Source: Paracoccaceae bacterium (lineage in GTDB: Bacteria > Pseudomonadota > Alphaproteobacteria > Rhodobacterales > Rhodobacteraceae). Taken from it: a DNA stretch of 64,000 nt. Both the position numbers and the translations under genes were made by a program. The notes below the pieces were generated by a model. The model saw only the letters and a list, made by a program, of their open reading frames with translations. It searched no databases and was not told where the DNA came from. Location: NCBI GenBank assembly GCA_965221575.1, contig CBDCSM010000007.1:84358-148357 (forward strand). The letters run 5' to 3'. Numbering within the stretch: position 1 is the first letter of the stretch; each line of letters begins with the position of its first letter. Below, one piece after another: positions 44,659 through 64,000 of this stretch.

Positions 44659-44753
44659 ACCCCTCCCGACCGATGCAGGGTTGCGTCTCGGCTCGCCGCC
44701 TCCGGCGGCGGCGCCGATTCCGCGTGGCGAAGCGCGGCCCCTTCTTTCGTCGC

Positions 44754-46288: not shown

Positions 46289-46290
46289 AG

Positions 46291-46617
46291 TTGTTTCCAA
46301 ATGCGGTTGGTTCCGCGGTTGCGAACGAGTTTCGGGACGTTCGCATAACGCACCGGTTCCATCCGCTGCGGGGGCGTGCACTGCGGATCCACGACCGCGT
46401 GACGGTGCTCAATGTTCCGCTGGTTCGGCACCGTGTGGAGGGTCCGGCGGGTCCGGTCTTTGTCAGCGTTCCTGTTTCCTGGACGTCTCTTCGTCACGTG
46501 GATGATTTCGAACGCGTGTCCTCGGGCCGCAGCCTGCTGCGTTCGGACGATCTGGTGGCGCTTCGCGAACTTGTGGATTGCCTTCTGGCCGCGGTCGGGG
46601 ACCGTAATCAGAAATGA
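46291..46617 (+). CDS. Small conserved left-end ORF (orfL-A; possibly DUF5372-like), lacking its own ATG/GTG start in the integrated state
   Basis: ...VRITHRFHPLRGRALRIHDRV...VEGPAGPVFVSVPVSWTSL...LVALRELVDCL. It is homologous to the left-end ORF of cassette B. The only in-element start candidate is a TTG 2 nt from the element end. An in-frame ATG lies at the other end of the element (49694). Confidence 0.5.
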   Translation: MFPNAVGSAVANEFRDVRITHRFHPLRGRALRIHDRVTVLNVPLVRHRVEGPAGPVFVSVPVSWTSLRHVDDFERVSSGRSLLRSDDLVALRELVDCLLAAVGDRNQK

Positions 46618-46737
46618 TGGCGCTGTTTGATCATAAATTCGGGCGCTTTCGGCTTCCCCTTCCCGGCATTCCGGGGCACGGAGGACAATTTTATCCCGTA
46701 TTTAAAGGCTTTTCTGCGCAAATGCCGCGATCATGCC

Positions 46738-46767
46738 TTGACAGCGGTGGAGCAGGTAGCGTATTAT
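46738..46767 (+). promoter_or_regulatory. Candidate sigma70-type promoter (TTGACA-18 nt-TATTAT) inside cassette A
   Basis: Hexamers were read directly in an AT-richer patch about 35 nt upstream of the HTH gene ATG at 46800. Confidence 0.35.
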
Positions 46768-46799
46768 TTAGTGAACATATATCGGAAGAACGCGACCGC

Positions 46800-47270
46800 A
46801 TGGAAGACCAGCGCAAAAAGCAGGACCGGCTCAGGGAGGCCGGCACCCTCAACCGGACGCCGGAAAAGGTCGGCGATCCGGCGTTCGCCGCGGGCGACTT
46901 CTTCGATTCCCGCGACCTGCTCCAGGTTCGCTACGAGATGGTCCGGCTGGTCCGGAAGGGAGGCGCCACGCTCGCGCAGGCCGCGGAACGCTTCGGGGTC
47001 TCCCGCCCGACCTGCTTCCGCATGGTCAAGTCGTTCGAGCGTGGCGGGCTGCAGGAGCTGATCCCGGCGAAACGGGGGCCGCGCGGACCACACAAGATCA
47101 CCGCGGAGATGCTCCGCTTCGTCGAAGACCACAGGGAGCGGCATGGACGGGTGGGTGCGCGGCGGCTGGTGCGGATGATCGAGGCCGAGTTCGGCGTCAG
47201 GATCCATCCGCGCGGTCTCGAGAAGGCGCTCGGGCGGGATAAAAAAAAATCGCAGGAGCCCGGGCCATGA
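46800..47270 (+). CDS. Helix-turn-helix protein of cassette A
   Basis: 156 aa. HTH (ATLAQAAERFGVSRPTCFRMVKSF) followed by a second DNA-binding-like segment. An alternative upstream start at 46614 overlaps the orfL-A stop, but it spans AT-rich sequence that does not look protein-like. Confidence 0.65.
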   Translation: MEDQRKKQDRLREAGTLNRTPEKVGDPAFAAGDFFDSRDLLQVRYEMVRLVRKGGATLAQAAERFGVSRPTCFRMVKSFERGGLQELIPAKRGPRGPHKITAEMLRFVEDHRERHGRVGARRLVRMIEAEFGVRIHPRGLEKALGRDKKKSQEPGP

Positions 47271-47572
47271 TGCGCGCCGACGCGCCGCAGGTTTACGAGG
47301 GCTGGCGCCAGCTCTGGCTGTCGGGCGGCGACAGCAACGCGATCGCCGCGCTGCGCTACCACGGCCTGCGCCGTGCCCTGGTCATGGCCGGGGCCGCATG
47401 CAACCGCACCGGCCCTCGGCCGCCGCTGCCGTCGTCCGCCAACGTGGACCTGCCCGTCGCCAAGGCCGCGATCACCGAGGCCGCCAGCCAGGTCCGGCAC
47501 CTGCTGCGTGTTCCGACACCTCCCGCAAACGGCGGCACGACACGGGAATACGGGGAGAATCGTCATGTCTGA
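47267..47572 (+). CDS. Small hypothetical protein of cassette A
   Basis: 101 aa. Has an ATGA overlap with the HTH gene and an 8-nt overlap with the recombinase ATG. No family recognised. Confidence 0.45.
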   Translation: MMRADAPQVYEGWRQLWLSGGDSNAIAALRYHGLRRALVMAGAACNRTGPRPPLPSSANVDLPVAKAAITEAASQVRHLLRVPTPPANGGTTREYGENRHV

Positions 47573-49697
47573 AGCACAGACGCGCAAGATCGCACCGCAT
47601 CATCTGGAACGTGAGGCATGCCTCTACGTGCGTCAGTCCTCGCCTCGACAGGTCATGCAAAACACCGAAAGCACGCTGCGCCAGTACGGGCTGAGCCAAA
47701 GGGCGATGGCGCTGGGCTGGCCTGCGGAGCGTATCCGGGTGATCGATGACGACCAGGGCAAGTCGGGCGCCCACAGCGAAAACCGTGACGGCTTTCGCGA
47801 CCTCATGGGGAGCGTCGCAGCCGGCGATGTGGGTATCGTTCTCGGCCTGGAAGTCTCGAGGCTGGCCCGCGACAATGCCGACTGGCACCAGTTGTTGCGT
47901 ATCGCCGGCATCACCAATACGCTGATCCTCGACGAGACCGGCATCTTCGATCCCAACGACGTGAACGACAAGCTATTGCTCGGCGTGAAGGGGACCCTGA
48001 GCGAGTTCGAGCTTCAGGGGATCATGGCACGGCTGATCGGTGGCCAGCGCAACGCGGCTGCACGGGGCGCCCTGAAAATGATTTTGCCGATCGGCCTGGC
48101 CTACAACGACAGGGACGAGGTTGTGTTCAATCCCGACCGGTCGATCGTCGATGCCATCCGCCTCGTGTTCGACGGCTTTCGCCGCAGGGGTTCGGCGATG
48201 GCGGTGGTGAAGTGGATGCACCGGGAGAACATGACGCTGCCGTCACGTCCGCTGAGCGGTCCGACCCGCGGTGAGCTGCGCTGGGCCCTCCCGAGCTTTG
48301 CGCAAGTTGGCCGCATTCTCAAAAATCCCCGCTACGCCGGTGCGTTCGTCTACGGTCGACACCGTTCCCGGCGACAGGGTGACGGGACCACGACGTACCG
48401 GACCGTGCCGATGGACGAGTGGGAGGTCTGCATTCCCGGTGCTCATGCGGGATTCATCGACTGGGACGAATTCCTCCGCAATCAGGCCACCCTGGCGAGC
48501 AATGCCGCATCGTTCCTGCGGTCGGGCTCGCGCACTGCGGCACCGCGCGAAGGGGCGGCGCTCTTGCAGTCGCGGATACTCTGCGGCCACTGTGGGCGGC
48601 GCATGTTCGTGAACTACAGCCGCGCCGCCAGGGCGAACGGCGACACCCGAGCCCCGTATTACTACGTCTGCAAGGAAGACCTCGTCCGCTACGGTCGAAA
48701 GACCTGCCAGAGCATGCGCGGCGATCTGGTCGACATCGAGGTATCCCGCTTCGTGATTGAGGTGATGAACCGAAAGAACATCGACCTGGCACTTGCGGTC
48801 CAGGAACAGGTCCGTGCGGAGTTCGCCAGCGCCGATGCCCAGCGCTCCCGGCGCATCGAGGCCATGCGCTACGAAGCCGACATGGCGCGCCGCAGGTTCT
48901 TCGAGGTCGATCCCGCCAACCGGCTCGTCGCGGCTGCGCTCGAAGCCGAATGGAACGATCGGCTGCGTGTTCTGGAGGAGGCCTGTCAGGAGCGCGAAAC
49001 GCGCGCCGCGGCCCGCGATATCGAACTCTCCGAGCGCCAGGTGGAGCGCGTCAGGGAACTGACCCGGGACTTCGAGCAGGTCTGGCATGCTCCCGAGACC
49101 GGCAACACCGACCGCAAACGGTTGCTCGGGCTTCTGATCGAAGATGCGACGCTGACCCGGGACGGCTACGAGGTCACCATCGGTCTGCGCATGCGGGGCG
49201 GCAAGTGCCTGACACTCGAAACGCAGCTGCCGAGGCCGATCGCACTGATCCGCAAGACCCCTCCCGAAACCATCGCCGAACTCGACCGCCTGTTGGGGAT
49301 GCACACCGATGAGCGAACCGCGGAAGAGCTCAACCGGATGGGGTACAGAAACTGGAAAGGTGAGTGCTACACCGCCAAGCGCGTCCGCAGCACACGACAG
49401 ACATATGGATTGCCCAGCTATCGCGAGCGGGAAAGGAAACGGCTTCGTGACCAGGGCTTCGCGGACGCCGGGGAAATGGCTGATCGGCTCGGCCTCAACG
49501 AGGGAAGCGTCCGGAAAATGGGCAGGACCGCGGACGACCCGCGCGTGGAGCGAGCGGTCATTCGCACGGATGGGCGGACATATTGCATGTACAGGGCCAA
49601 CGGCCACGACGAATCGGCTTGCGGGGAGCCGGGAGACGACGGCATGATCCCGCAATCGACAGTGGAAATCCCAAAAGCGCAACAAGGTGCATCATGA
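47565..49697 (+). CDS. Large serine recombinase (cassette A)
   Basis: 710 aa from MSEAQTRKIAPHHLEREACLYVRQSSPRQV (catalytic Ser motif). Has a resolvase domain (GLEVSRLARD), a recombinase domain, a Zn ribbon (CGHCGRRM...YYYVC), a coiled coil and a long C-terminal extension. Confidence 0.85.
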   Translation: MSEAQTRKIAPHHLEREACLYVRQSSPRQVMQNTESTLRQYGLSQRAMALGWPAERIRVIDDDQGKSGAHSENRDGFRDLMGSVAAGDVGIVLGLEVSRLARDNADWHQLLRIAGITNTLILDETGIFDPNDVNDKLLLGVKGTLSEFELQGIMARLIGGQRNAAARGALKMILPIGLAYNDRDEVVFNPDRSIVDAIRLVFDGFRRRGSAMAVVKWMHRENMTLPSRPLSGPTRGELRWALPSFAQVGRILKNPRYAGAFVYGRHRSRRQGDGTTTYRTVPMDEWEVCIPGAHAGFIDWDEFLRNQATLASNAASFLRSGSRTAAPREGAALLQSRILCGHCGRRMFVNYSRAARANGDTRAPYYYVCKEDLVRYGRKTCQSMRGDLVDIEVSRFVIEVMNRKNIDLALAVQEQVRAEFASADAQRSRRIEAMRYEADMARRRFFEVDPANRLVAAALEAEWNDRLRVLEEACQERETRAAARDIELSERQVERVRELTRDFEQVWHAPETGNTDRKRLLGLLIEDATLTRDGYEVTIGLRMRGGKCLTLETQLPRPIALIRKTPPETIAELDRLLGMHTDERTAEELNRMGYRNWKGECYTAKRVRSTRQTYGLPSYRERERKRLRDQGFADAGEMADRLGLNEGSVRKMGRTADDPRVERAVIRTDGRTYCMYRANGHDESACGEPGDDGMIPQSTVEIPKAQQGAS

Positions 49698-49706
49698 AAC
49701 AAGAGA

Positions 49707-50459
49707 CTTGTCGCGCGGCTTCTTGACCCGCGCCGGCAAGCCCTCGACGCCGTAATGCTCAAGCAGATCGGCGTAGGTCTCGTTCAGGACCGGTTCGTAG
49801 CGTGACGGGGTCTTCACTGCTGCCTTGACGTTGTCGGGCACCGCAACCTGCGGCGCCCAGCCCATGTCTTCGAAACAGCGCACGTGAGAGTTGCACCAGT
49901 CATCGATCTTCTGGCTGAGGGTCGCTTCGGCGTAGACCCGACCCGAGACCCCCATCGAGGCGACGAACACCTGCGCGGCATGCTCAACCCCGTCGAGGAA
50001 CAGCGGGATGGTCGTGCCAGCGTAATCAACGAACAGCCGTTCGCCGGGACGGCGGTTCTGGCGCATCGTCACATCCACGCACGGCCGCCAGTCGCGGAAC
50101 CGGCGCGTCCAGGTCACATAGCTCATGCCGTCGGGATGGGTCTCGCGCCATTCCTCCCACAGCAATTTCAACGTCACGCCGCGGTCCGAAAGGTCGCTCT
50201 CAACCGTTGCCCAATCCACATCTTCGTCCGCAGGCCGAACCTGCCGCACCGGATAGAGCGCCGCCTCCAGCACCTCATCGTCCATGTCGGCCGCTTCCGG
50301 CCAACTCAAGCCCGAAGCCGCAAACCGCTCCAGGGTCTGTCCCACCGAGCGTCGGGCGAGACCGCAGTGGGTCGCGATCGCCCGGGCGCTGCGGCCCTCG
50401 TCAAAGTGAAATTCCAGTATCTTCCTGACTTTCCTCATGGGCAGCCTCTTCTGTGCCAT
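49707..50459 (-). pseudogene. istA: IS21-family transposase IstA, N-terminal fragment
   Basis: MAQKRLPMRKVRKILEFHFDEGRSARAIATHCGLARRSV... (HTH) through the DDE region (...LFVDYAG...) to ...PARVKKPRDK. The last 5 tracked codons and the stop come from cassette A. Confidence 0.8.
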
Positions 50460-50632
50460 TCCTTACTCCTCGGACTGATCGCAAAATCCGAGGTGTAAAC
50501 CGGCATCCTGATTCAAACCAAAGCCAGTCACCCCGAGGGGTGGCTACCATGGTGAAATCAGGCGGCTACCTTGAGTGAAATTCGGTGGCTACTTTCAGTG
50601 AAATTGGGTGGCTACTTTCGTGAAATTTTGCA

Positions 50633-51093
50633 ATGCCCAGCTCCTTCTCGGCCCGGGCCTCGGAGCAACAGAACAGGCGGAGCTCGGAAGCCTCCTCGTC
50701 GGTGACGGCCTGGATGTGGACCTTCCCGCGGGTGCGGGTCTCGATCGCCGTCGCCAGGTCGGGGTCGAAGTGGCGGACCCGTTCGCGACTGACCACGAGA
50801 TAGCGGTAGCCATTGTCGCGGAGCCAAGCGACGTTGTCCTCGGTGGCGACGCCGGCGTCCATCACCACCAGCGCATCCCGGGGTGCCGAAAGCCTGGTCA
50901 GCATCCCCTCCAGCGTGCTGCTTTCCTTGACGTTGCCGGGGAACACGTCCGAGCGCTGCACGAAACCGCTGCCGTCGAGAACCAGGCCCAGGGTCAGTAA
51001 CGGACAGTCGCTGCGCTTCTCCTTCGAGTGGCCACGCTGGGCCTTGGGCTGCTTGTCAGCCGCACCCTCGAAAAACGTGTTGGTCAGGTCGAA
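50633..51093 (-). pseudogene. IS1634-like DDE transposase, middle fragment
   Basis: DLTNTFFEGAADKQPKAQRGHSKEKRSDCPLLTLGLVLDGSGF...VVMDAGVATEDN...ARAEKELGI. Bounded by cassette B on one side and the IS21 element on the other. Confidence 0.75.
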
Positions 51094-51444
51094 CGAACTG
51101 CCATCTGACTGATCACCTCCATGTTGCATTTCTGTACGGATTCCGGGAGCGCCCCGCAACCCGTTGACATGATACTGTTTTCTTCATGTTGCCGCGCTCG
51201 GGCTTGAAACGCCTGTTCCTGGTTTACAACGTGCAACTGCCGAAATGCCCGCGATTGGGGCCCATGTTCGCCGGGTCCGGACCCGCCGACCCGGTGCGTC
51301 CCCCTCGCTTGAACGCCGGATCCTCGCCGAAAACCCGTACGACAGGGGATCCGACGGCGATTCCGCGCAGGCAGGGTCGCAAAATCGGCCCCGCAGGCGG
51401 GGTTTACGTCATGCAACTCCGGGGCCGCAGCCGGGATCACCGGG

Positions 51445-53631
51445 TCAGCCATCGCCTGCCTCCGGGGTCTCGAAAAGCGGAAGCCGGTCGTCGCCAAGCT
51501 GAACATACAATCCCTTGACTGAACCGCGGCGGATGTGCCGGGCCTTCAGCGCACCGGACCGGATCCGCTGCCAGATCACCTGACGGGACACGCCAAGACG
51601 TTTCATCGCCCTGTGAAGCGACACGAAGCCGGCCGGCGGTTCGTCGCAGAACTGGCTGCGCAACTCCGGCGTCATGCGGATCCGATAGGGTGCCCCGGAT
51701 GCCGGTTGTTCGGCCGGCACGATCCCTGCCCGGATCCAGCGGTAGAGCGTGCCGACAGTTGTTTGCAGTTCACGGGCCGCTTCGGCCACGCTGAGCAGGG
51801 GGGCGTTGGTGTCTCGCCTGTCGGCGCGCCAGGCCGGAATGTCGTTGCGCAGCCGCAACTGCCGGACGAGATACGCGGTGAACGCAAGCCCCTTGGCGGT
51901 GCGCCGCCCCTGGCGGTTGAGAATGATCGCCGTCCGGGCGTCCGGGTAATGCGCGGCCAGCCGGCGGACGAGCGCCACCGTGTCGATATCGTCACGGACC
52001 ACCGCCGGAGCCTGGTGCGAGGGCAGCTCAAACTCATCCGTCGCGCCCCCGTGCCAACGCACGAGGATCCGAATGACTTTCGCCGTCCCGTCGCGCCAGA
52101 GCATGACCTCCTCCACCAGGCAGGCCAGAAGACGCTTGCGGTCCCGGGCGGTGACAACGGGAGACTCCCAGAGCCGGGAGAGGCGCATGCCCAGGGCATT
52201 CAGCCGCGCCAGGGGCGGCGGTTCGGGACGGTCCCGCTGCGCCTGCTCCAGGGCGTCCCGGGCCGCGGCCAGGGCCTCCAGGGCCCGGTTCCAGTCGCGT
52301 TCGAGCGTATCGGCGACCAGGCGATTGTCGGGGTCCACCTTGCGATAGCGGCGTTCCGCAAGCGAGGCTTCATAGTTGCAGCGGTCAACGTCCAACCGCA
52401 GTGTCCGATGCGCCTCCTGGTCCTTTTGCTGCTGCTGCCTGAACGCCTCGGCCGCCGCCTCGATGCCGGACGCCGAAACCGCTTCAAGGAATGTGTCGCC
52501 AATCAGGGCATCGATGCGCTTGCCGCCGACCGTCATGCACGACCGTCGGTCGGCATCTCCGTTGCGTGGCGCGCAGATGTAGGTCCACGCCTTGCCGTAG
52601 GCGACGTTCATGGCGCGGCCGCAGTGACCGCAGACCACGCGACCCTGCAGCAGCGCCTTGCCTTCCCGCTCTGCGCCCCCCGTTCCCGATGCCGTCGAGT
52701 TCGCCGACAGCCGGTCCTGGATCTCAAGCCAGACCGGCCAGGGGACGTAACCCTCGTGATGATCCTTGATCAGGACATGCCAGTCATCCGGGCCAACCTT
52801 GCGGATGATGCGCCGGACCTGGTTGTCGTCGCCCAATACCCGCTCCGTCCGCTGGCGCCCGTAGACATAAGCGCCCCCCATGGCCGGATTGCGGAGAATC
52901 GAATGGACGCGCTCATAGCGGGCTTCGCTCCACACGACGGTGTCGCTGCCCGATTGACGGCTGGGAAGCCGGACCCCCTCATCCCGAAGCGCCTGGATCG
53001 CCTGGCGTGCCGAGCCGTGCGCCAGGAAACCGGAAAACACCCGGTCGATCGCATGCCGGACCTGCAGGTCCGGATCCTTGAGCAGCGAAGTCCCCTCCAG
53101 CACGTATCCGATCGGAATGTGGTGATACAATTCGCCGCGGGCGGCCTTGTTCCGGATGCCGCCCTGCAGGCGCGTCCGGATCAGGAAGGCTTCCGATTCC
53201 GAAAGCGTGCCCTTGATCGAGAGAACAAGATTGTCGTCATGGCGGGCCGGGGAATACACCTGCTCCCCTTCAACCAGCAGCGTATCCGTCATCCGGCACC
53301 AGTCGAGCAATTGAAACCACTCCACAGGATTGCGCGCCAGGCGACTGACCTCAAGACCGAAGACCGCCCCCACACGACCGCGCGCGACCGCATCGGCAAG
53401 CCGCGAAAAGCCGTCGCGTTCGCCCGCAAACGAACCCGACCGGCCCTGGTCCGCATCCACGGTCTCAATCAGGTCGTCGTGCCAGCCCAGGGCGCGCGCC
53501 TCGTTGGCCAGCGCGTACTGACGCTCCGTGGATTCCCGGTTCGCGTTGACCTGCGTCGGCGTCGATTGCCGGATGTAAATCAGGGCACGGCGTTCAAGGT
53601 GGCGGGCCGTGATCTTCTCGCCTGCGCTCAT
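51445..53631 (-). CDS. Large serine recombinase (cassette B)
   Basis: MSAGEKITARHLERRALIYIRQSTPTQV (catalytic Ser motif), GLEVSRLARN, Zn ribbon CGHCGRAM...YICAP, a coiled coil, and two C-terminal HTH-like segments. Its ATG at 53631 overlaps the upstream ORF stop (ATGA). Confidence 0.85.
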   Translation of the reverse strand: MSAGEKITARHLERRALIYIRQSTPTQVNANRESTERQYALANEARALGWHDDLIETVDADQGRSGSFAGERDGFSRLADAVARGRVGAVFGLEVSRLARNPVEWFQLLDWCRMTDTLLVEGEQVYSPARHDDNLVLSIKGTLSESEAFLIRTRLQGGIRNKAARGELYHHIPIGYVLEGTSLLKDPDLQVRHAIDRVFSGFLAHGSARQAIQALRDEGVRLPSRQSGSDTVVWSEARYERVHSILRNPAMGGAYVYGRQRTERVLGDDNQVRRIIRKVGPDDWHVLIKDHHEGYVPWPVWLEIQDRLSANSTASGTGGAEREGKALLQGRVVCGHCGRAMNVAYGKAWTYICAPRNGDADRRSCMTVGGKRIDALIGDTFLEAVSASGIEAAAEAFRQQQQKDQEAHRTLRLDVDRCNYEASLAERRYRKVDPDNRLVADTLERDWNRALEALAAARDALEQAQRDRPEPPPLARLNALGMRLSRLWESPVVTARDRKRLLACLVEEVMLWRDGTAKVIRILVRWHGGATDEFELPSHQAPAVVRDDIDTVALVRRLAAHYPDARTAIILNRQGRRTAKGLAFTAYLVRQLRLRNDIPAWRADRRDTNAPLLSVAEAARELQTTVGTLYRWIRAGIVPAEQPASGAPYRIRMTPELRSQFCDEPPAGFVSLHRAMKRLGVSRQVIWQRIRSGALKARHIRRGSVKGLYVQLGDDRLPLFETPEAGDG

Positions 53632-54085
53632 CGTCCATCTCCGCTGCAGCAACCTTCGTCATCAGTTGCGACAGTTGCGTCACAAACGCCGCCCGGCTCT
53701 CCTGCGGAAACCTCTGCCACCGCGCCAGACGTTCCTCCCAGGCCAGAAGCGCCAGAAGCGGCGGTTCCCGATCGTGGCCCTGTGATCCCAACCCGATCCT
53801 CCAGTGTCCTGATCCGTTCAAGCAGGGCGAAAAATGCGTCAAGCGTGCCGCGGGTGCAAGCCACCGGGCGCGCGCATCCGCCCAGCGTCGTCCAATCCGA
53901 CGGAATCCGGAAACGCTGACCGTCCGGCATCTCCACATCCAGAAAAACGCGGCCGCAGGCGTGCCTGCGAACCTTGTTAACCTTCAGTTCCCGGGTATCG
54001 TACGGGTGCTTGAAACGCTTGAGAAAAACCGGCTCCGACGGCAGGCGCCGGGAAAGCCCTCGAAGTGTATTAGTCTGTTGCCCCT
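53628..54085 (-). CDS. Left-end ORF of cassette B (orfL-B), homologous to orfL-A, with no in-element start upstream of its conserved motif
   Basis: The frame is open from the element end: ...VFLKRFKHPYDTRELKVNKV...VEMPDGQRFRIPSDWTTL...LDAFFALLERIRTL.... The first canonical in-element start (GTG 53936) lies after the conserved RF.HP motif. The C-terminal 50 codons are low-complexity, and a second frame overlaps them. Confidence 0.5.
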
Positions 54086-54777
54086 TCGAAAAGCGTCACC
54101 GTGTGTCCCAGTGAGAACAGGTCCGTCACCCGCTCGAACATGTGGGTCTCGATCTCCCGGCGCCGCGACAGCAGGGCATCCGAGGCCCGGTACAGGCGCA
54201 TCATGTCCATGGTCTCGAAATCGACATCGAGCAGTTCGCCGAGCGCACTCCGCTCGCAGAGCCAGCGCCAGGTCGCACGCTCCGAGCCCGGCACCGCCAT
54301 GCGGCCGATGATCGACCCCATGGCCACGGCCCGCGAGCGGCGGTTGAAACCCAGGCGCACAAGAAGTTCCCCGATGCCGAGTTGTTCCATCGCCCACAGC
54401 CCCACGTGCTCGACACCGGCAGAACGCGGGCGCACCATCTCCAGGGACGTCACGTCCACCGTTTCCATTCTGGGACCGGTCCCGGCGCCTGCGACCGGAG
54501 GCGAACGGCTGACCAGCCGGGCGGCGATGCGCTGCGCTTCCGCCTCGACCTCATCGGGCCAGGGGAGCGGCAGAAGTGTCTCCTGGCGCCCGATGAGCTG
54601 GGTGATGCGCGCGCACAACAGGCGCCAGTGTTTCTTCTCCACGGGGAAATTGCTTCCGAGGTTGAGGAGGGTCCTCTGCCTGACCCTGTCGCCCTGTCGT
54701 TCGTTGCGGACGAGGCGGTAGGAGAAGTACTCGGTTCCGTCCTCTGTGGTGCGTGTTTTGGCGCGCCTGATGAACAT
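54086..54777 (-). pseudogene. IS1634-like DDE transposase, N-terminal fragment
   Basis: MFIRRAKTRTTEDGTEYFSYRLVRNERQGDRVRQRTLLNLG... through ...DLFSLGHTVTLF. The frame then runs into cassette B and stops. Confidence 0.75.
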
Positions 54778-55334
54778 GGCGTGAGTTTATCATGTTGTGG
54801 GGAGTGCTGGAATCCCCTTTCTTTCAGATTATGGCACCACGATCCACTGGCACGAATACAATATCAGGTAAAAACAGAGCGTTGGAGGATACGGGAAGTC
54901 AAAAATACCCCGAAATCGGCAGAATCGCGCCAAAAAATGTCAAACATGGGTTAACAAATTTATGGAAGGCTACCTGACCTCGCCGGACGGCCACGCCTCC
55001 GCACCTGAAATCCTCCTGAATGAACGAGCCTTAAAAAGGCCTGATGACCTGCAACCCTACTTGAGCCGCAGGAAAAACAGCAGACTTCGGACTTGACGAG
55101 ATGGGACCCAAGGGAACAGAAATGAGAGGTGACGAACAGAGACACTGGATGACTTCTAGGCAAATGTTGGTCGAATTCGCCCTGGTTCATGCGCTGCATG
55201 ACCTGTGAATCCTTCCCGGCCAGATTTCTCCTTTTCGGGATTGATACGCCTGATTTTGCGTCCGTCCGGTCACAAGTGCGGCGCATCAGGGCATCAGGAA
55301 TCTCGGACGTTTTTTTGACGGAGCAAACATCGCG

Positions 55335-58300
55335 ATGATGGATTCCAACTTGCCTGCCTGTCCTGACGAAGAACCGCAAGACCCCACCGAAGCACGTTCG
55401 CCGGACTTTTCCGAATTCGGGGCGCCGGTGGCGATTGTCGGCATGGCCTGCCGATTCCCCGGGGCAGACGGCCTTTCCGCTTTCTGGCGCCTTCTGGAAG
55501 CCGGTGGAAACGCGGTGCAGGAGGGCCTTCCAGGGTCCGGAATCGGGCGCGTGGGCGCCATGTTCCCGGACGATACTGGACAGATCGACGCCTGCCGTTT
55601 TGGCGCCTATCTTGACGATCTCGACCGGTTTGACGCCGCCTTCTTCCGCATTTCTCCGGTCGAAGCACAACTGCTGGATCCGCAGCAACGGCTGATCCTG
55701 GAGATAAGCTGGCGGGCTCTCGAAGATGCCGGCATTGATCCCGAACTGCTGAAAGACAGCCCTGCTGGCGTCTATGCGGGCATCAGCAACAACGACTACC
55801 GGGGGTTGATTCTGGAGGCCAGCGAGAATGCCGGGCCGGCCGAGCCAGCCGCCAGCCTGTATGCGGTCACCGGCACATCCCTCAATACGGCGATCGGCCG
55901 GGTTGCGTTTGCTCTCGGGTTCGGCGGGCCGGCGATGGCGGTGGACACTGCCTGCTCGTCATCGCTGGTCGCGATGCACCAGGCGGTCACGGGCTTGCAG
56001 CGGGGAGATGCTGACCTCGCCCTCGCAGGCGGTGTGAACATCATTCTTTCCGGCCGGCTTCTCGAATTCAGGGCCAATGCGGGAATGCTGTCGCCCGACG
56101 GCCAATGCAAGACTTTCGATGCCTCCGCCAACGGATATGTCAGGGGCGAAGGCTGCGGCATCGTCGTCCTGAAACGACTCGCTGACGCGGAAGCCGACGG
56201 CGACCGCATCTGGGGCGTGATCCGGGGTACGGCGCTGAACCAGGACGGGGCAAGTCCCGGACTGACGGTTCCTAACGGGGCGGCGCAGGAACGTGTGATC
56301 GCGGCGGCGCTCGGGAGGGCCGGTGTCCAAGCTTCGGATATCGACTACCTGGAGGCGCACGGAACGGGCACCGAGGTGGGCGACCCGATCGAGATCAAGG
56401 CAACGGCCGCGGTTTACGGGCGCGATCGCGATGCCTCCTGCCCGCTGCTGATCGGATCGGTAAAAACCAACATTGGCCATCTGGAGTCGGCGGCAGGGGT
56501 AGCAGGGGTAATCAAGACCGTGCTTGCGATGAACCGCGGCATCATCCCCAGGCACCTCCATTTCAATGACCCGAATCCCGAGATGGACTGGGAGCGGCTG
56601 CCATTGCAGGTGACGTCCTCACCGACGCCGTGGCCCACCAACGCGGACCGCCCGCCGCTGGCAGGCGTCAGTGGTTTCGGATGGTCGGGGACAAACGCCC
56701 ATGTCGTGCTTGAAGGATACGTCCCGCCCGATGGTGCCACGCGCTCGCCTGACCCGGACAGTTGGATCGCCGGCGCTCCGAAACAGATCGCGGTTTCACA
56801 GCTGATACCAGCCGCGCCACGAAAGTCGAAGGACGGCCTAGCGCCGCGCACGACGCGCCTTCTGCCGCTCTCCGGAAAGTCGGATGGAGCGCTGCGTGAT
56901 TCGGCCGGGCGTTATCTCGCCTGGCTCGATGAAAAGGAGGACCCGCTTGCGGCCGGGAGCACGGGAGCCGATCCGCTGCTTTCCGACATGGCCTGGTCGG
57001 CCAGTATCGGGCGAAGCCATTTCGGCTACCGCGCGGGCTTGGCATTCCGGGACGTTGCGTCACTGCGCGAGGGTTTGCGGGCGATTGCCGATACGGACGA
57101 AGGACCATCTGCATCGCGAAATGCCTCCATGGTGGCGTTCGCTTACACCGGACAGGCCAGTCAATGGCCGGGCATGGGCGCTGTACTCTATGACAGCGAA
57201 CCCGTCGTGCGCGCCGTGCTTGACAGGTGCGATGACGTGCTCAGGCAAATGCGTGGCGCCTCGCTGCTCGCCGTGATGTTCGGTCGTCCCGGAGCCGCGG
57301 GAGACCTCGACGATCCGCAGTGGAAACAGCCTGCGATTTACGCGCTCGAATGCGCCCTCACGGCGCTGTGGTCGAGCCACGGCATCCGGCCGGACGTCGT
57401 GCTCGGACACAGCCTGGGAGAGGTCGCCGCAGCGAATGCCGCGGGCGCGCTCGAACTGGAGGATGGTTTGCACCTTGCGGCGGCGCGGGGAACGTTGGTC
57501 GGCGCCCTGCCGGGTGATGGAGCCATGGGGGCGGTATTCGCGCCAGCCGCGCGCGTTTCGAATGCGTTGGAAGAGCACAACGCGGCGACTCAAGGTATCG
57601 GCCTCTGCATCGCCGCCGACAACGGAGCGCACCAGGTCATCAGCGGTCCGGCTGAGGAGATCGTGGCGATCCTCGAACAGCTGGAGGCGGCCGGAATTCG
57701 GGTCGCACGGTTGCGCAAGAGCCCCGCCTACCACAGTGCCATGATCGAGCCCGCGCTGGACGAACTGGAGGCAGCCCTTTCCCGGATTCCCTCAGTGCCG
57801 CCGAAGATTCCCTTCGTCAGCAATCTGAGTGGACAGACGCTCCGTTCTGGCCAAACGCTGGACGCGGCTTACTGGCGCCAGCAGATGCGCGCACCGGTGG
57901 CGTTCCGTACCTGTGTCGAGACCCTGGCAGGGCTTGGCGTGGACGCGGTTGTCGAGATCGGTCCGCACGCCGTGCTCGGGCCTATGATCTCGATGGCCTG
58001 GCCGGAATCCGGCAGGGTCACCGAGCCGGCGGTCGTGTCGAGTCTCAGGAGACCGGCAACTGGCGAAGAACCACCGGCGCCAGGGTCAGGCGGTGGTTTT
58101 GTGGAAGCCCTTGCCGGCGCGTATGAGGCCGGGCTTCCTCTACGCTTCGAAGGCCTTTTCGCGGGTGAATCACGGCGACGCATTGCGCTGCCAGGCTATC
58201 CGTTTCAGCGCGAACGCTACTGGGTCGAGGCCCCCAGGCGGCGGCGGTCGGGCACCGGCCACCCCTTGCTGGGAGTGCGCCACGAGTCCGCGAGCGGCGA

Positions 58301-61300
58301 AACCAGTTTCGACACCGAGTTGTTCCCGTCAGACCCGGCGTGGCTGGGCGACCACCGCGTTTTCAACCGGCTGGTGACGCCAGGCGCCCTTTACGGAGCG
58401 ATGGCGTTAACCGCGTGCACCGCCGAGCGGCCCGGTTCGGCAGCCATCGAGGATTTCCAGATTCAAAGCGCGCTTGTCCTCCCGGAAAAAGGCGACGCGG
58501 AGGGAAGCGGCGAAGAAGGCCGCCGGCTGCAGGTGCTGCTTGACGACTCCGGGGAGGACTCGTCACGCCGAGTCCGGGTACTGAGTCGGGGCGCGGACGA
58601 CGAGGACTGGACGCTGCACGCGGAGGGACGGATCCCGGGCGGCACTGATTCAAGTCCGCAAGCGGCCGGTGCGCCTTTGGACCCGGCACTTCTGAAGGCT
58701 GACCTGGCGCCCGTGGATCTCGCTGCCTATTACCGGGCGAAGGCCGAGGTTGGCATCGATCTTGGCCCCTCTTTCCGAACGCTGGAGGGGTTGTGGTCCC
58801 GGCCAGGCGAAGCGCTCGCCGAAGTGGCCCTGCCGGAATCCGTTGGTGGAAGCGGGTTGGAATTTCACCCGCTCATGCTTGACGGTTGCTTTCAGGCGAT
58901 GGCGGCGGCACGCGAGCCTACTGATTCCGATGACGGGATCACTTACCTGCCATTCGGGTGGGAGCGACTGTCGTTGCCGGGGCCGCTACCGGAACGGATG
59001 TTCTGCCACGTGTGCATGAGGGATGCGCCGGCAGAGACAAATGCCGATCTGCGGGAGGTGTTTAGCGCCGACATCGCTCTCTACGACAACGCCGGATCGC
59101 CCGTTGGAACCCTGAGTGGGTATACGGTGAAGCGTGCGGTTCGGAGCGCATTGCTCGCCGCGGTGGAGGGAGTGGACGAGCTGCTCTACGAAATCGTATG
59201 GCGCGATAGTGCCCTGCCGACAGGCATGCTGCCTGCAGACTTCCTCCCGAGCCCGTCGGAAGCGGCTTCCCGTTCGCAACCGTTTTCACGGTACCTGGCC
59301 GACGAGAAGATCGAAGTCACAGACGAAAGTGACCTCCAGGGAGAGATGGAAAAGGCCGCTTGGTGTTACGCGCTCTCGACACTGGAAAGTCTCGGATGGG
59401 TACGCGACGCGGGCACGTCCATTGACCCGGAGAAACTCCGTGAGCACCTTGAGGTTCTACCCGAGCACACGCATTTGTTCCGCCGGATACTCGAGATTCT
59501 GGTCCGCTCGGGCGTGTTGCAGGAGAAGGACGCGGAATTCGTGGTGGCAGTCGGATCCGGCGATCCGTTACCGAATGGAATGCCGCGTGATTCAGAGGTA
59601 TTTCTGGACGAAGTCACGGGTCGGTTTCCGCATGCGACGAACGAGGTCGGGCTGTTTCGACGCTGTGCAGGCGCCCTGCCCGAGGTGCTTCGCGGCGATG
59701 AGGATCCGCTGTCGCTGTTGTTCGGCGATGCGAAGCCGCAGGCAGGAGATCTCTATCGAATGGCGCCGGTCTGGCGGGCGGCGAACCGGATGTTGGGTGA
59801 CGTCGTTCGAACGCTCGTCGACCAGTTGCCGGAAAGCCGGCGACTGCGCGTGCTGGAAGTGGGCGCCGGCATCGGTTCGGCAACGGAATGCATCCTGCCC
59901 GAACTTCCGGCTGAACGGTTCGATTACATGTACACCGACATCTCCGCGGGCTTTTTTGCCGACGCGGAGGCGCGATTCAGCGCATCGGGCGCTCCGATCG
60001 ACTACAGCGTACTGGATATCGAGAAAAACCCGGTTGCCGCGGGCTTCGAACCACATTCTTACGACCTGGTCATTGCGGCCAACGTGTTGCACGCGACACG
60101 GTATCTTGACGAGACACTTGCCCACTGCCTGGCGCTCATGGCGCCGTCGGGGCTGCTGGTGGCGCTCGAGAACCAGCGCAGCAGGGGATGGATGGACCTG
60201 ATATTCGGTCAGTTGGACGGATGGTGGCGTTTCGCTGATCGCTATCGTGCGGACCACGCCCTCGCGGGACCGGACGTGTGGTGCGAGGCGCTCGCCGATG
60301 CCGGATTTTCTGAGTCCGACGTGCTCGGCGTGGATCCTTCGGACGCAGCCGTCCTGCCGGATCGCGGAGTGATCGTGGCGCAGGCCCCGGCCGAGATCGC
60401 ATTGCCGGTGGGCGTCTGGATCCTGGCAGCGGACCGGGACGGCACTGCGGAGGCACTCGCGGCGCAGCTCGCAGCAGAGAACCAGAAGGTGGTTCTGGCA
60501 AGCGACGGCCCTGAGGACACCGGTGCGGAAGGACTCGGGACCGACATCGTCGCAGCTTCGGTCGAAATCGAGCGTCGGGAATCCTGGCGATCGCTCATCG
60601 AAAGTCTGCCCGCGGATGTGCCACTCGCCGGCGTGGTGCATCTCGTCGCGCAGGACGGCCACGGTGCGGAAGCGACGACAGCGGAAATGGCGGAGGACGC
60701 AAGACGCACGGCGGCGAGCGCACTCGCGCTCGTGCAGGGAATCTCCGACGCGGACGTCGTGCCCGAGAAAGGCGTGTGGTTCGTCACCCGGGGTGCGCAG
60801 GTTCTCGAACGCGAGCGCACCGGGCAATTTGCCGGCGCGACCCTTTGGGGCCTCGGCAAGGTGGTGGTGCGGGAAGCGCCACAGCTGCAATCGCGAATGC
60901 TTGATCTCGACCCGGAGACATCGGATCCACAGGCAGCGATCCTCGTGAATGAATTGCTGTTTTCCGACCCGGAGAACCATATTGCGCATCGCCAGGGGCG
61001 CCGCCAGGTAGCGCGGCTTGTCCGGAAGGGTTCAGGTGTCGCGCACATTGACCTGCCGGAGGAAGCGGGTTGGGTGCTGGCGCCTGACGAAGGTGGAGCG
61101 ATCGAGTCTCTGGAGGTGCGGCCATTGGCGACGGGCGCCCTGAACCCGAACGACGTGCGCGTCGCGGTCGAGGCCTGCGGGCTCAACTTCCTCGACGTGT
61201 TCCGGGCAATGGGCCTGGTCGAGGAGGGATTGCTCGGGGAGGAATTCTTTGGCCAGATTGTCGAAACCGGTTCCGACGTAACGACCGTCTCGGTGGGCGA

Positions 61301-64000
61301 CCGCGTGGCTGGCTTCGCGTTCGGCACGTTCGCTCCGGAAGTGGTCACGAGGGAGGAACTGGTCGCTCCCGCGCCTCCGAACGTGCCGGCGACGGCGCTC
61401 GCCACCATCCCCTCCGTGTTCGTGACGTCCGTTCTTTCCTACGAGTTGGCCGGGTTGAAGGCCGAGGATCGCGTGCTGATTCACGCTGGTGCGGGCGGCG
61501 TCGGGCTTTCCGCAATTCAGCTCGCCAAGGCGGCGGGTGCAGAGGTTTTCACCACTGCGAGCGCGCGCAAGCAGGCCTTCATCCGCTCGCTCGGTGTCGA
61601 GCATGTGTTCGACAGCCGCTCGACCGCGTTCGGTCAGGAAATCCTCGACGCCACAGGCGGTGCCGGAGTCGACGTCGTGCTGAACAGCCTGACCGGAGAG
61701 GGATTCATCGAGGCGAGCCTCGCCTGCCTCGCAGAGGGCGGCCGCTTCGTCGAACTCGCCAGGAGGGACATTCTGAGCGAGGACGAAATGGCAGCACTGC
61801 GGCCGGACGTCGCCTATTCGATCCTCGATCTCTACACCCTCAAGGAGCAGGATCCCGCGCGGCCGGGTGCAGCCCTGAAAGAGGTGCTGGCGCGCATGGA
61901 ATCGGGTGAACTTGCGCCGCTCATGCACACGAGGTGGCCGTTGGCCGAGGCAAGCACAGCGATGGGTTACATGCGTGCGGCCCGGCACATTGGCAAGATC
62001 GTGCTGACCATGCCTCCCCTCAGGAATGGGCGGTTACGGCAGAATGGGACCTACCTAGTGACGGGCGGGCTGGGCGGAATCGGCTGTGCGCTCGCCGAGT
62101 GGCTCGCCGAACACGGAGCGGGCACGGTCGCGCTGAACGGCCGGAGACCGCCGGACCCGGAGGCGGAAAAAGCCATCGAGGCGTTACGCGCCCGCGGCTT
62201 CAGGATCGAGGTCGAGATTGCGGACGTCACGGACACGGCTGCGCTCGATGCGATGCTGGCGCGGGTCGACGGGACACTGCCGCCGCTTGCCGGCGTGATC
62301 CATAGCGTCGGCGCGTTGTCGGATGCTTCCATTGGCAACCAGAGCTGGGAAAGCTTCGAAACTGTGCTGTGGCCGAAGATTCTGGGGGCCTGGCACCTTC
62401 ATCGGGCGACAGAGGATCGCGATCTGGACATGTTTGTCCTGTTCTCCAGCGTCGCAGGCATTTTGGGAAATCCGGGCCAGGCCAATCATGCGGCGGCCAA
62501 CGCATTCCTTGACCAGCTCGCCGCCCACCGGCGCGCGCTGGGTCTCCCCGGGCAGGCCATCGTTTGGGGCGCCTGGTCCGAGCTGGGCGAGGCAGAGGAG
62601 CAGCGCGAACGGATCGCCGGGCGGCGGCAGGCATTCGGCACCGGTTGGTTCACGCCGGAGCAGGGTTTCAAGGCTTTTGAGCGTCTGCTGCACCAGGATG
62701 CGGCGGGCGTCGTGGTTGCGGCGGTGGACTGGCAGTTGTTCGGAGACGCTGTCGGCGACCGCCCTTCCCTCCTGGAAGACCTGCTCGCCGGCACGGCAGA
62801 CGACGACGAAGATTCATCATCCGCGCCGGAAGACCTGATCGCACAGCTTGGCGCAACGCCGGCAGCCGGACGCGAGGACCTGCTCGTGTCGTTCCTGCAG
62901 CGTGAAGTCCAGGCAGTCCTGAGGTTGCCGTCTGCGCCAGCCTCTGCGGTCGGGTTTTTCGATCTGGGGATGGATTCCCTGGTGGCAGTCGAACTGCGGA
63001 ATCGCCTCAATCGTGCGTTTTCGGACACCTATGTGGCGCCGAATACCCTGGTGTTCGACTACCCGACCATTGCCGATCTCGCGCGTCATCTTGTGGACGC
63101 ATTGGGCGAACTGACCCCGGTCTCCGGGGTGACATCCGATCAGGACCCACAACCTCCCGCGCTGCCTCGGGATGATGGAATCGCGATCGTGGGCATGGCG
63201 TGCAAGTTCCCCGGCGCGCCTGACCTTGCAACCTTTTGGCGCCAGCTCGAGTCGGGCCACGACGCGGTGACGAGCGGGAGGCAGGATAACGGGTCGTGGA
63301 CCGGCGTTGCGGGCAACCCCGCAGACGTCGCCGGCGCTTGGAGTCATGGAGGGTTCATCGAAGGGATCGACCGATTCGACGCGCGTTTCTTCGGCATGAC
63401 ACCCATCGGCGCGCGCGTGATGGACCCGCAGCAGCGGCTTCTCCTGGAGACAAGCTGGCGTGCGCTTGAGGACGCGGGGATCGATCCCGTGAGCCTGAGG
63501 GGCAGCCGCTCCGGGGTCTACGCGGGTATCGCGACCAGCGAGTACCGTGATCTGATGATTTTGGCGGGCGGTGAAGGCCTCAACTATCTCGGCACCGCCA
63601 GCAGCATGGCGGTCGGTGGAGTCGCTTTCAAATTGGGCTTCACCGGTCCTGCGATGCCGGTAACGCTGAACTGCGCCGCGTCACTTGTCACGGTGCAGCA
63701 GGCCGTCGCGGATTTGCGGAGGGGAGACGTTGATCTGGCCCTGGTCGGTGGCGTGAACGCGGTCCTCTCACCCGGTCTGACTAAAGAAATGGTTGCATTG
63801 GGAATGTTGTCCATGCAGGGCCGCTGCAAGACATTCGACGCGGCCGCGGACGGTTTCGTGCGGAGCGAAGGCTGCGGGATGATCGTCCTTAAGCGGCTGC
63901 GGGAGGCCGAGGCCGACGGCGATCGCATTTGGGGAGTGATCCGGGGTGCGGCCGTCAACCAAAACGGGGCGACGGCGGGGCCGACGGTGCCGAACGGCCC
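55335..64000 (+). CDS. Type I modular polyketide synthase, 5' part (KS-AT-DH-MT-ER-KR-ACP-KS...), continues beyond the window
   Basis: A single open frame runs from ATG 55335 to the window edge. It is absent from the ORF track, presumably because it has no stop. KS1: Cys codon 55953 (DTACSSS), HGTGT at about 56358. AT: GHSLGE, Ser codon 57411. DH: HPLLG at 58260 and GDHRVFNRLVTPG, His codon 58353. MT: LEVGAGIGS at about 59853. ER: HAGAGGVG at about 61481. KR: TYLVTGGLGGIG at about 62049. ACP: GMDSL, Ser codon 62976. KS2 runs from about 63180 (IAIVGMACKFPG). Confidence 0.9.
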   Translation, partial: MMDSNLPACPDEEPQDPTEARSPDFSEFGAPVAIVGMACRFPGADGLSAFWRLLEAGGNAVQEGLPGSGIGRVGAMFPDDTGQIDACRFGAYLDDLDRFDAAFFRISPVEAQLLDPQQRLILEISWRALEDAGIDPELLKDSPAGVYAGISNNDYRGLILEASENAGPAEPAASLYAVTGTSLNTAIGRVAFALGFGGPAMAVDTACSSSLVAMHQAVTGLQRGDADLALAGGVNIILSGRLLEFRANAGMLSPDGQCKTFDASANGYVRGEGCGIVVLKRLADAEADGDRIWGVIRGTALNQDGASPGLTVPNGAAQERVIAAALGRAGVQASDIDYLEAHGTGTEVGDPIEIKATAAVYGRDRDASCPLLIGSVKTNIGHLESAAGVAGVIKTVLAMNRGIIPRHLHFNDPNPEMDWERLPLQVTSSPTPWPTNADRPPLAGVSGFGWSGTNAHVVLEGYVPPDGATRSPDPDSWIAGAPKQIAVSQLIPAAPRKSKDGLAPRTTRLLPLSGKSDGALRDSAGRYLAWLDEKEDPLAAGSTGADPLLSDMAWSASIGRSHFGYRAGLAFRDVASLREGLRAIADTDEGPSASRNASMVAFAYTGQASQWPGMGAVLYDSEPVVRAVLDRCDDVLRQMRGASLLAVMFGRPGAAGDLDDPQWKQPAIYALECALTALWSSHGIRPDVVLGHSLGEVAAANAAGALELEDGLHLAAARGTLVGALPGDGAMGAVFAPAARVSNALEEHNAATQGIGLCIAADNGAHQVISGPAEEIVAILEQLEAAGIRVARLRKSPAYHSAMIEPALDELEAALSRIPSVPPKIPFVSNLSGQTLRSGQTLDAAYWRQQMRAPVAFRTCVETLAGLGVDAVVEIGPHAVLGPMISMAWPESGRVTEPAVVSSLRRPATGEEPPAPGSGGGFVEALAGAYEAGLPLRFEGLFAGESRRRIALPGYPFQRERYWVEAPRRRRSGTGHPLLGVRHESASGETSFDTELFPSDPAWLGDHRVFNRLVTPGALYGAMALTACTAERPGSAAIEDFQIQSALVLPEKGDAEGSGEEGRRLQVLLDDSGEDSSRRVRVLSRGADDEDWTLHAEGRIPGGTDSSPQAAGAPLDPALLKADLAPVDLAAYYRAKAEVGIDLGPSFRTLEGLWSRPGEALAEVALPESVGGSGLEFHPLMLDGCFQAMAAAREPTDSDDGITYLPFGWERLSLPGPLPERMFCHVCMRDAPAETNADLREVFSADIALYDNAGSPVGTLSGYTVKRAVRSALLAAVEGVDELLYEIVWRDSALPTGMLPADFLPSPSEAASRSQPFSRYLADEKIEVTDESDLQGEMEKAAWCYALSTLESLGWVRDAGTSIDPEKLREHLEVLPEHTHLFRRILEILVRSGVLQEKDAEFVVAVGSGDPLPNGMPRDSEVFLDEVTGRFPHATNEVGLFRRCAGALPEVLRGDEDPLSLLFGDAKPQAGDLYRMAPVWRAANRMLGDVVRTLVDQLPESRRLRVLEVGAGIGSATECILPELPAERFDYMYTDISAGFFADAEARFSASGAPIDYSVLDIEKNPVAAGFEPHSYDLVIAANVLHATRYLDETLAHCLALMAPSGLLVALENQRSRGWMDLIFGQLDGWWRFADRYRADHALAGPDVWCEALADAGFSESDVLGVDPSDAAVLPDRGVIVAQAPAEIALPVGVWILAADRDGTAEALAAQLAAENQKVVLASDGPEDTGAEGLGTDIVAASVEIERRESWRSLIESLPADVPLAGVVHLVAQDGHGAEATTAEMAEDARRTAASALALVQGISDADVVPEKGVWFVTRGAQVLERERTGQFAGATLWGLGKVVVREAPQLQSRMLDLDPETSDPQAAILVNELLFSDPENHIAHRQGRRQVARLVRKGSGVAHIDLPEEAGWVLAPDEGGAIESLEVRPLATGALNPNDVRVAVEACGLNFLDVFRAMGLVEEGLLGEEFFGQIVETGSDVTTVSVGDRVAGFAFGTFAPEVVTREELVAPAPPNVPATALATIPSVFVTSVLSYELAGLKAEDRVLIHAGAGGVGLSAIQLAKAAGAEVFTTASARKQAFIRSLGVEHVFDSRSTAFGQEILDATGGAGVDVVLNSLTGEGFIEASLACLAEGGRFVELARRDILSEDEMAALRPDVAYSILDLYTLKEQDPARPGAALKEVLARMESGELAPLMHTRWPLAEASTAMGYMRAARHIGKIVLTMPPLRNGRLRQNGTYLVTGGLGGIGCALAEWLAEHGAGTVALNGRRPPDPEAEKAIEALRARGFRIEVEIADVTDTAALDAMLARVDGTLPPLAGVIHSVGALSDASIGNQSWESFETVLWPKILGAWHLHRATEDRDLDMFVLFSSVAGILGNPGQANHAAANAFLDQLAAHRRALGLPGQAIVWGAWSELGEAEEQRERIAGRRQAFGTGWFTPEQGFKAFERLLHQDAAGVVVAAVDWQLFGDAVGDRPSLLEDLLAGTADDDEDSSSAPEDLIAQLGATPAAGREDLLVSFLQREVQAVLRLPSAPASAVGFFDLGMDSLVAVELRNRLNRAFSDTYVAPNTLVFDYPTIADLARHLVDALGELTPVSGVTSDQDPQPPALPRDDGIAIVGMACKFPGAPDLATFWRQLESGHDAVTSGRQDNGSWTGVAGNPADVAGAWSHGGFIEGIDRFDARFFGMTPIGARVMDPQQRLLLETSWRALEDAGIDPVSLRGSRSGVYAGIATSEYRDLMILAGGEGLNYLGTASSMAVGGVAFKLGFTGPAMPVTLNCAASLVTVQQAVADLRRGDVDLALVGGVNAVLSPGLTKEMVALGMLSMQGRCKTFDAAADGFVRSEGCGMIVLKRLREAEADGDRIWGVIRGAAVNQNGATAGPTVPNG

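Follow-up and report, generated by a model that had tools for sequence, protein, structure and literature searches.

Here we describe a 64,000-nt stretch of DNA from a Paracoccaceae bacterium (the window; C7:84358-148357, C7 standing for contig CBDCSM010000007.1), which ends within a large polyketide synthase (PKS) gene. The gene is intact, correctly read and a typical member of a known, widespread family, and its product is probably a Sup-type lipid-forming PKS with a split terminal module. The Sup (sponge symbiont ubiquitous) PKSs are reportedly treated in Fieseler et al. 2007 and Hochmuth et al. 2010. Positions past the window end are given as window-equivalents, that is, the C7 coordinate minus 84357.

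The PKS frame (55335..63998, 2,888 codons) is open up to the window end, in line with the initial annotation, which had described a single unbroken frame of more than 2880 codons. The complete PKS comprises 3,444 amino acids (aa), with its stop at window-equivalent 65669 (C7:150026), 1.7 kb past the window. Stops or frameshifts had been named as findings that would overturn the gene model, and none was present within the gene. Pfam hidden Markov models (HMMs) placed a ketosynthase (KS) at residues 31-410, an acyltransferase (AT) at 602-908, a dehydratase (DH) at 976-1273, a methyltransferase (MT) at 1493-1614, an enoylreductase (ER) at 1938-2224, a ketoreductase (KR) at 2238-2416, an acyl carrier protein (ACP) at 2521-2586 and a second KS from about residue 2615. 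This is the same order, KS-AT-DH-MT-ER-KR-ACP-KS, that had previously been read from motifs. The proposed lack of a cis loading module likewise held, with the first KS starting at residue 31, near the N terminus. NCBIfam returned only sub-threshold matches, to the generic type I PKS, Pks2, Pks13 and PfaA models. The catalytic residues of KS1, AT1, DH, MT, ER and ACP are conserved in an alignment of 57 family members. All features are listed in Table 1.

Table 1. Coordinates of the PKS gene, its domains, the adjoining genes and the upstream insertion
Feature	Position	Strand	Basis and remarks
supA-like PKS gene, in-window part	55335..64000	+	Open reading frame (ORF) reading; homologue clusters; shared end point
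KS1	55425..56564	+	Pfam PF00109/PF02801; Cys207/His342/His382 invariant in family alignment; DPQQR and HGTGT motifs
AT1	57138..58058	+	Pfam PF00698; active, GHSLGE (Ser693), family-wide SPAYHS; leans malonyl-type
DH	58260..59153	+	Pfam PF21089/PF14765; His1007 and Asp1183 invariant
C-methyltransferase	59811..60176	+	Pfam PF08242 and related families; S-adenosylmethionine (SAM) motif I LEVGAGIGSAT conserved
ER	61146..62006	+	Pfam PF08240/PF00107/PF13602; NADPH motif HAGAGGVG conserved
KR, His type	62046..62582	+	Pfam PF08659; His2385 (codon 62487-62489) at usual catalytic Tyr position
In-line ACP	62895..63092	+	Pfam PF00550; Ser2548 invariant
KS2, in-window part	63177..64000	+	Pfam; domain runs on to window-equivalent 64283
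AT0 remnant and post-AT linker	window-equivalent 64839-65666	+	Pfam, alignment to AT1; nucleophile Ser replaced by Gly
Alpha/beta-hydrolase, 299 aa	window-equivalent 65687-66586	-	Ser115/Asp246/His275 invariant; convergent with PKS, 18 bp past its stop
Free ACP, 76 aa	window-equivalent 66760-66990	-	Invariant attachment Ser; just upstream of hydrolase on minus strand
Native PKS upstream region, 384 bp	54951..55334	+	100% identical to strain L075; proximal ∼170 bp partly conserved in 87% relative
Nested mobile-element insertion, 11.4 kb	43553..54950		Absent from ∼99%-identical strain; 5-bp junction overlap

Past the window end, the rest of KS2 is followed by a KS-AT linker, an acyltransferase remnant (AT0), a post-AT linker (LPDYPFERRRHW) and the stop; no ACP, thioesterase (TE) or further PKS gene comes next. 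Of the 319 positions of the Pfam AT model, AT0 matches only 2-114, and its alignment to AT1 revealed that ∼96 aa are gone. These comprise the part that follows the nucleophile elbow as well as the entire small subdomain, which bears the specificity motif. The serine of its GHSxG motif is a glycine (GCGIG), and the same nucleophile position holds Gly in 51/57 family members and Ser in 0/57. The Cys-His-His triad of KS2 is conserved across the 57-member alignment in a family-specific xLNCAAS context, with Cys2780 (codon 63672-63674) inside the window and His2915 and His2955 past its end.

The same ending recurs throughout the family. More than 100 protein clusters of 3,400-3,480 aa in a large protein collection cover 99-100% of the PKS at 70-98% identity, and in species-representative genomes the family amounts to 67 loci, with the same ORF length and end point in nearly all complete ones and the same end point in 64/67 overall. 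The hosts are metagenome-assembled genomes (MAGs) of Acidobacteriota (Bryobacterales, Thermoanaerobaculia), Alpha- and Gammaproteobacteria, Gemmatimonadota (Ca. Palauibacter, Longimicrobiales), Chloroflexota and Nitrospirota. Since length and end point agree in >100 clusters and in 64 loci spread over six or more phyla, the end of the PKS is not a truncation, and the KS2-AT0 ending is a conserved family design rather than the start of a longer assembly line. We also calculated the ratio of non-synonymous to synonymous substitution rates (dN/dS) against two relatives, 98% and 87% identical, obtaining 0.24 and 0.17, respectively, for the whole gene, 0.17 and 0.12 for KS2, 0.13 and 0.07 for KR, and 0.54 and 0.45 for the linker plus AT0. 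Furthermore, three loci encode a 3,188-aa PKS that has lost the whole AT remnant but neither KS2 nor the post-AT linker; the free ACP and the hydrolase are likewise kept there. Together, the dN/dS contrast and these three loci indicate that KS2 is under selection and that AT0 is a dispensable scaffold. The 3,188-aa variants (L059, L065 and L067) reside in Thermoanaerobaculia and Ca. Multivorans MAGs; their AT0 deletion is clean, the KS-AT linker being joined straight to the post-AT linker, and their KS2 motif reads DMTCASS instead of xLNCAAS.

An examination of the neighbouring genes, which had been proposed as a check, showed that a free ACP and an alpha/beta-hydrolase adjoin the PKS and that a homologue of a phosphopantetheinyl transferase (PPTase) lies on another contig, away from C7. 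By tblastn within 10 kb of the PKS at the 67 loci, the free ACP was present in 60/67 and the hydrolase in 59/67; an NCS2/xanthine-uracil-type permease was found in 33/67 and an Sfp/HetI-type PPTase in 32/67, and no second PKS gene was conserved near the PKS across these loci. In this genome, a permease homologue (74% identical) is located on contig C11. The hydrolase triad Ser115-Asp246-His275 and an HG oxyanion motif are present in all 52 orthologues. At the sequence level, the hydrolase matched no PDB entry. The fold most similar to its AlphaFold model (predicted local distance difference test, pLDDT, 85) is that of the CurM off-loading thioesterase 3QIT (E 1e-14, template-modelling (TM) score about 0.7), with many generic alpha/beta-hydrolases nearly equal. 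The attachment site of the free ACP has the context G-V-S-S-V-D, not the usual D-S-L, and the invariant Ser is preceded by Ser or Thr in 60/60 orthologues. A ∼317-aa 'unknown' neighbour cluster from ORF clustering was discarded, being an antisense frame of the hydrolase gene. Further downstream lies a second alpha/beta-hydrolase of 264 aa, PcaD/BioH-like (window-equivalent 68621-69415; L003:13978-14772, plus strand), which is also present in the L075 strain described below and is not family-conserved.

We then compared these features with the published descriptors of Sup PKSs. Sup enzymes are unusually small monomodular type I PKSs that dominate the KS amplicons of high-microbial-abundance sponges (PMC4245539), and the protein described here has one complete module and a terminal KS-AT0 in 3,444 aa, with further PKS genes absent nearby. 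The proposed products are mid-chain methyl-branched fatty acids (PMC4245539), for which the domain set is present: an in-line MT together with DH, ER and KR, the KR as a His variant. Degenerate DPQQR/HGTGT primers yield sponge amplicons dominated by sup KSs (PMC3908369, PMC4245539); KS1 contains both DPQQR and HGTGT (residues 342-346), and KS2, with HGAGS, would not amplify. MAGs from several phyla have been reported to contain SUP-like clusters irrespective of taxonomy (PMC9426513), and the sup KS clade is mapped mostly to Gemmatimonadetes and Alphaproteobacteria (bioRxiv 2023.01.09.523365). Correspondingly, our loci come from MAGs of six or more phyla, the PKS tree mixes phyla, and the sequencing runs containing this DNA include sponge and coral metagenomes. 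A permease, SupE, is listed in the sup cluster (PMC3908369, Table); here, only the hydrolase and the ACP adjoin the PKS. The locus resembles Sup in its monomodular build, its methylating and fully reducing domain set, the KS1 primer motifs and the multi-phylum spread; a SupE-type permease adjoins the PKS at half of the family loci. The differences are that neither a permease nor a PPTase adjoins this copy, that its genome is Rhodobacterales-like and that recent insertions of insertion sequences (ISs) and recombinase genes lie on both sides of it. The names SupA-E did not appear among the 120 best matches of either the PKS search or the hydrolase search.

Regarding AT1, the initial annotation had reported GHSLGE and an atypical SPAYHS, both of which are present (residues 691-696 and 796-801) and conserved across the PKS family; its view that the extender unit could not be read off can be refined. 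The best solved relative is the AT of CurL (4MZ0), whose GHSVGE...SHAFHS aligns with GHSLGE...SPAYHS, in contrast to the GHSQGE...DYASHS of DEBS AT3. Because the AT1 motifs align with those of the malonyl-type CurL AT and not with those of DEBS, a malonyl-CoA extender, with SAM-derived methyl branches introduced by the in-line MT, appears the likelier reading. In the KR, His2385 aligns with the catalytic Tyr of mycocerosic acid synthase (MAS; 9d2y) and AmphB (3mjv). This His was present in 57/57 aligned members and in 112/112 family matches, and the NADPH motif and the Ser are intact; the sequence around the His is GQxNHAAAN instead of NYAAAN. In four related multimodular PKSs, the His-type KR occurs in 5/5 modules with an MT motif, and the Tyr in 2/2 MT-less modules. 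Its low dN/dS and intact NADPH site suggest that the KR is probably active.

These data are compatible with the following scheme. AT1 would load malonyl units, and the starter would be drawn from primary metabolism, there being no cis loader. Module 1 would then run at least once, and probably iteratively, through condensation, C-methylation, ketoreduction, dehydration and enoyl reduction, giving a saturated, methyl-branched acyl chain whose alpha-methyl groups would derive from SAM. KS2 would take over this chain and, given that it has kept both decarboxylation histidines, condense it with malonate borne by the free ACP; the split terminal module would thus consist of KS2 and this ACP. As AT0 is unable to do so, AT1 would charge the free ACP in trans, and the hydrolase would finally release or transfer the product. 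The exact order of these steps is tentative. A variant that we consider rather unlikely treats KS2 and the free ACP as a hand-off device: module 1 would add a single SAM-methylated, fully reduced unit to an elongating fatty acyl chain, KS2 would pass the alpha-methyl product to the free ACP by condensation, and the branched intermediate would return to ordinary type II fatty-acid elongation.

Several observations weigh against the assignment to Sup or against parts of the proposed scheme. Sup membership, although very likely, rests on descriptors and distribution and not on a KS tree with named SupA sequences, and the accessible Sup literature contains no demonstrated product of any Sup PKS. 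No permease or PPTase is adjacent to this copy of the PKS. Co-occurrence underlies the roles proposed for KS2, the free ACP and the hydrolase. In the KR, His takes the place of the catalytic Tyr, its activity being derived from conservation only. Lastly, the transcript data amount to one identical contig of 185 nt in one metatranscriptome and a few short contigs, mostly of relatives, which is no evidence of expression.

The absence of an ACP or TE at the protein end, the dead and shortened AT2, and the IS elements and recombinases flanking the locus could be due to the PKS being the decaying leftover of a longer multimodular assembly line that mobile elements severed after KS2-AT. We consider this extremely unlikely. 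The same end and length are found in the >100 clusters and 64 loci across phyla mentioned above, mostly without nearby IS elements; the L075 strain has the same gene end and no insertion there, all insertions lying outside the gene; and purifying selection extends to KS2. Split modules are known from other PKS systems, and the genome encodes a second megasynthase on contig C14, so that KS2 might instead pass its chain to a PKS or nonribosomal peptide synthetase encoded elsewhere, making this the first protein of a dispersed colinear assembly line. This is very unlikely, as the only near-universal partners in the 67 loci are the free ACP and the hydrolase, with no conserved second PKS gene nearby, and the C14 synthase belongs to a self-contained swf-type cluster.

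A more serious alternative, though still an unlikely one, is that KS2 does not elongate and functions as a transacylase, a gatekeeper or a dimerisation piece, the free ACP and the hydrolase serving in priming or editing. Its unusual active-site context (xLNCAAS versus DTACSSS) would fit such a role, as would the lack of a working AT and of its own reductive domains. However, KS2 keeps its Cys together with both decarboxylation histidines, one of which is typically lost in non-elongating KS0 domains, and its dN/dS is low. The Sup assignment itself must be weighed against a MAS-like or mycobacterial-type synthase making multimethyl-branched fatty acids from methylmalonyl-CoA. The best partial NCBIfam matches indeed include the phthioceranic acid synthase Pks2 and Pks13, and the KR is closest to the MAS structures. 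Nevertheless, such an identity is highly improbable: the NCBIfam scores are far under the cut-offs (NF041183, 1241 bits versus 2400), an in-line C-methyltransferase (cMT) is present, the motifs of the AT align with those of CurL, which are malonyl-type, rather than with those of ATs of the methylmalonyl type, and the distribution is that of sponge and coral symbionts, not of Actinobacteria.

Compared with better-known synthases, the Sup-type PKS shares its linear order with animal fatty-acid synthase (FAS) and fungal highly reducing PKSs (HR-PKSs), KS-MAT-DH-(psi)MT-ER-KR-ACP, which also have no separate loading module, and iterative use is plausible. The HR-type or lipid-synthase-like character initially suspected was borne out, the protein being FAS/HR-PKS-like under both HMM and comparative tests. 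In contrast to these enzymes, it has no cis TE or release domain and carries an extra KS-AT0 didomain, and an ACP and a hydrolase are encoded by genes of their own. Its MT looks active, whereas animal FAS has a pseudo-MT. Among solved structures, MAS (9d2y, 5bp4) comes closest to the KR region; it is a bacterial enzyme that makes methyl-branched lipids iteratively and with full reduction. Its methyl branches come from methylmalonyl-CoA, and it has no MT; it also differs from the PKS in lacking a second KS and in having the canonical Tyr in its KR. From the curacin system, the CurM TE (3QIT) is the best structural match of the hydrolase and the CurL KS-AT (4MZ0) the best sequence match of AT1. 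The hydrolase differs in being encoded separately and in sharing only about 15% identity, and the sulfotransferase partner is absent at this locus. The GQxNHAAAN motif is shared with His-type KRs of cMT-containing PKS modules, the difference being that the module here is fully reducing. For KS2-AT0, AlphaFold gave a poor model (mean pLDDT 53, KS half <50); its fold matched KS-AT didomains at a TM of only about 0.35 and so contributed nothing further to the sequence evidence. The locus does not fit a colinear multimodular cis-AT assembly line, in which several complete modules end in a cis TE or release domain, as the protein stops after KS2-AT0, with no TE and no downstream PKS genes.

The other hallmark synthase of sponge symbionts is swf (sponge widespread FAS-like; PMC3908369). 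A Swf PKS (KS-AT-DH-ER-KR-ACP, no MT, with the reductase-sulfotransferase swfB and the B12 radical-SAM protein swfC) was also considered for the gene described here and rejected because of the MT, the second KS and the lack of such partners. The same genome does harbour a swf-type cluster (L078:1366-12754; C14:138366-149754, minus strand). It encodes a KS-AT-DH-ER-KR synthase (2,370 aa), a radical-SAM protein that binds B12 (580 aa) and an NAD_binding_4 reductase fused to a sulfotransferase (842 aa), matches the published swfA/swfC/swfB and is adjoined by an AcrB-type pump gene. Its presence is in keeping with the Sup assignment of the PKS.

The host is a Rhodobacterales-like alphaproteobacterium of a marine-invertebrate holobiont. 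PurF, encoded beside the locus, is 70-71% identical to its counterparts in Paracoccaceae and Silicimonas MAGs and only 42-49% identical to those of acidobacterial, gemmatimonadotal and gammaproteobacterial PKS hosts. The PKS is 78-80% identical to Bryobacterales copies, and a tree of 57 PKS proteins (FastTree only, support 90-98) groups it with Bryobacterales and gammaproteobacterial copies, not with other Paracoccaceae. This agrees with the reported taxonomy-independent spread.

The strain L075 (a 3.55-Mb metagenome contig; 98.5-99.9% identical DNA) has the order CvpA-PurF-short-chain dehydrogenase/reductase (SDR), a 733-bp spacer, PKS, hydrolase and ACP, without the upstream insertion. Its divergence from our sequence is mosaic, ≤0.2% over a stretch that begins with the upstream housekeeping genes and takes in KS1 and most of AT1, and 1.5-3.7% per kb from ∼57951 to ∼66950, which suggests a homologous-recombination breakpoint inside the PKS gene at window ∼57950, at the end of AT1. 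In runs X1, X3 and X5, KS1-AT1 (window 55300-58300) had a summed contig depth 10-100x as high as the strain-specific DNA on its flanks, and variant letters were numerous. This depth and these variants point to many sup alleles in the same holobiont samples, as PCR surveys reported. A scan of the PKS upstream region for a sigma-70 promoter and a terminator found nothing.

The junction with the nested insertion lies at 54950/54951, 384 bp before the ATG, in agreement with the ∼380 bp to an IS1634-like terminus given initially, and a match to a contig of run X3 begins exactly at 54951. The outermost element of the nest is IS4/IS1634-like, and an intact copy on contig C6 encodes a 603-aa DDE_Tnp_1 transposase. 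Inside it lies an IS21-family element with istA split by a 3.4-kb cassette (an HTH (helix-turn-helix) gene and a 774-aa large serine recombinase), and the nest also holds a second cassette with a 735-aa recombinase. A second 6.3-kb IS21-plus-cassette copy, inverted and 99.6% identical, is found downstream at C7:153871-160193 with its own 5-bp overlap. Since the junctions of the two copies show separate 5-bp overlaps when compared with L075, the 6.3-kb composite unit appears to have transposed as a whole at least twice. The two copies (window 44334-50632, C7:128691-134989; window-equivalent 69514-75812, C7:153871-160169) bracket the PKS-hydrolase-ACP core. The PKS has the same orientation relative to its flanks as in L075, and none of the insertions disrupts it. 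Judging from the alignment of the two strains, the upstream nest, which does not belong to the PKS cluster, and the downstream 6.3-kb copy are recent strain-specific insertions. Comparison with L075 showed two more such insertions, at window 34494-35697 (1.2 kb) and window-equivalent 76144-78168 (2 kb), the latter holding a 599-aa ORF with about 95%-identical copies on C7, C12 and C14. Conversely, L075:22236-25138 is an uninterrupted 2.9-kb IS21 (IstA, IstB) between the free ACP and the second hydrolase, a site that is empty here (C7:∼151925-151932).

Sup PKSs are among the most abundant biosynthetic genes of sponge microbiomes, and their product, methyl-branched fatty acids, is only proposed. 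The copy described here adds little that is new, being another intact example with the KS2-AT0 ending, the free ACP and the hydrolase; its use lies in providing a clean, complete copy in a near-complete genome that also has swf. The insertions around the locus and the recombination suggested inside the gene are relevant to the spread of the cluster between phyla. If true, the hand-off of a methylated chain from KS2 to the free ACP and on to fatty-acid elongation would explain why the methyl branches of sponge lipids are mid-chain and not at the chain end, and would give the Sup family a defined role.

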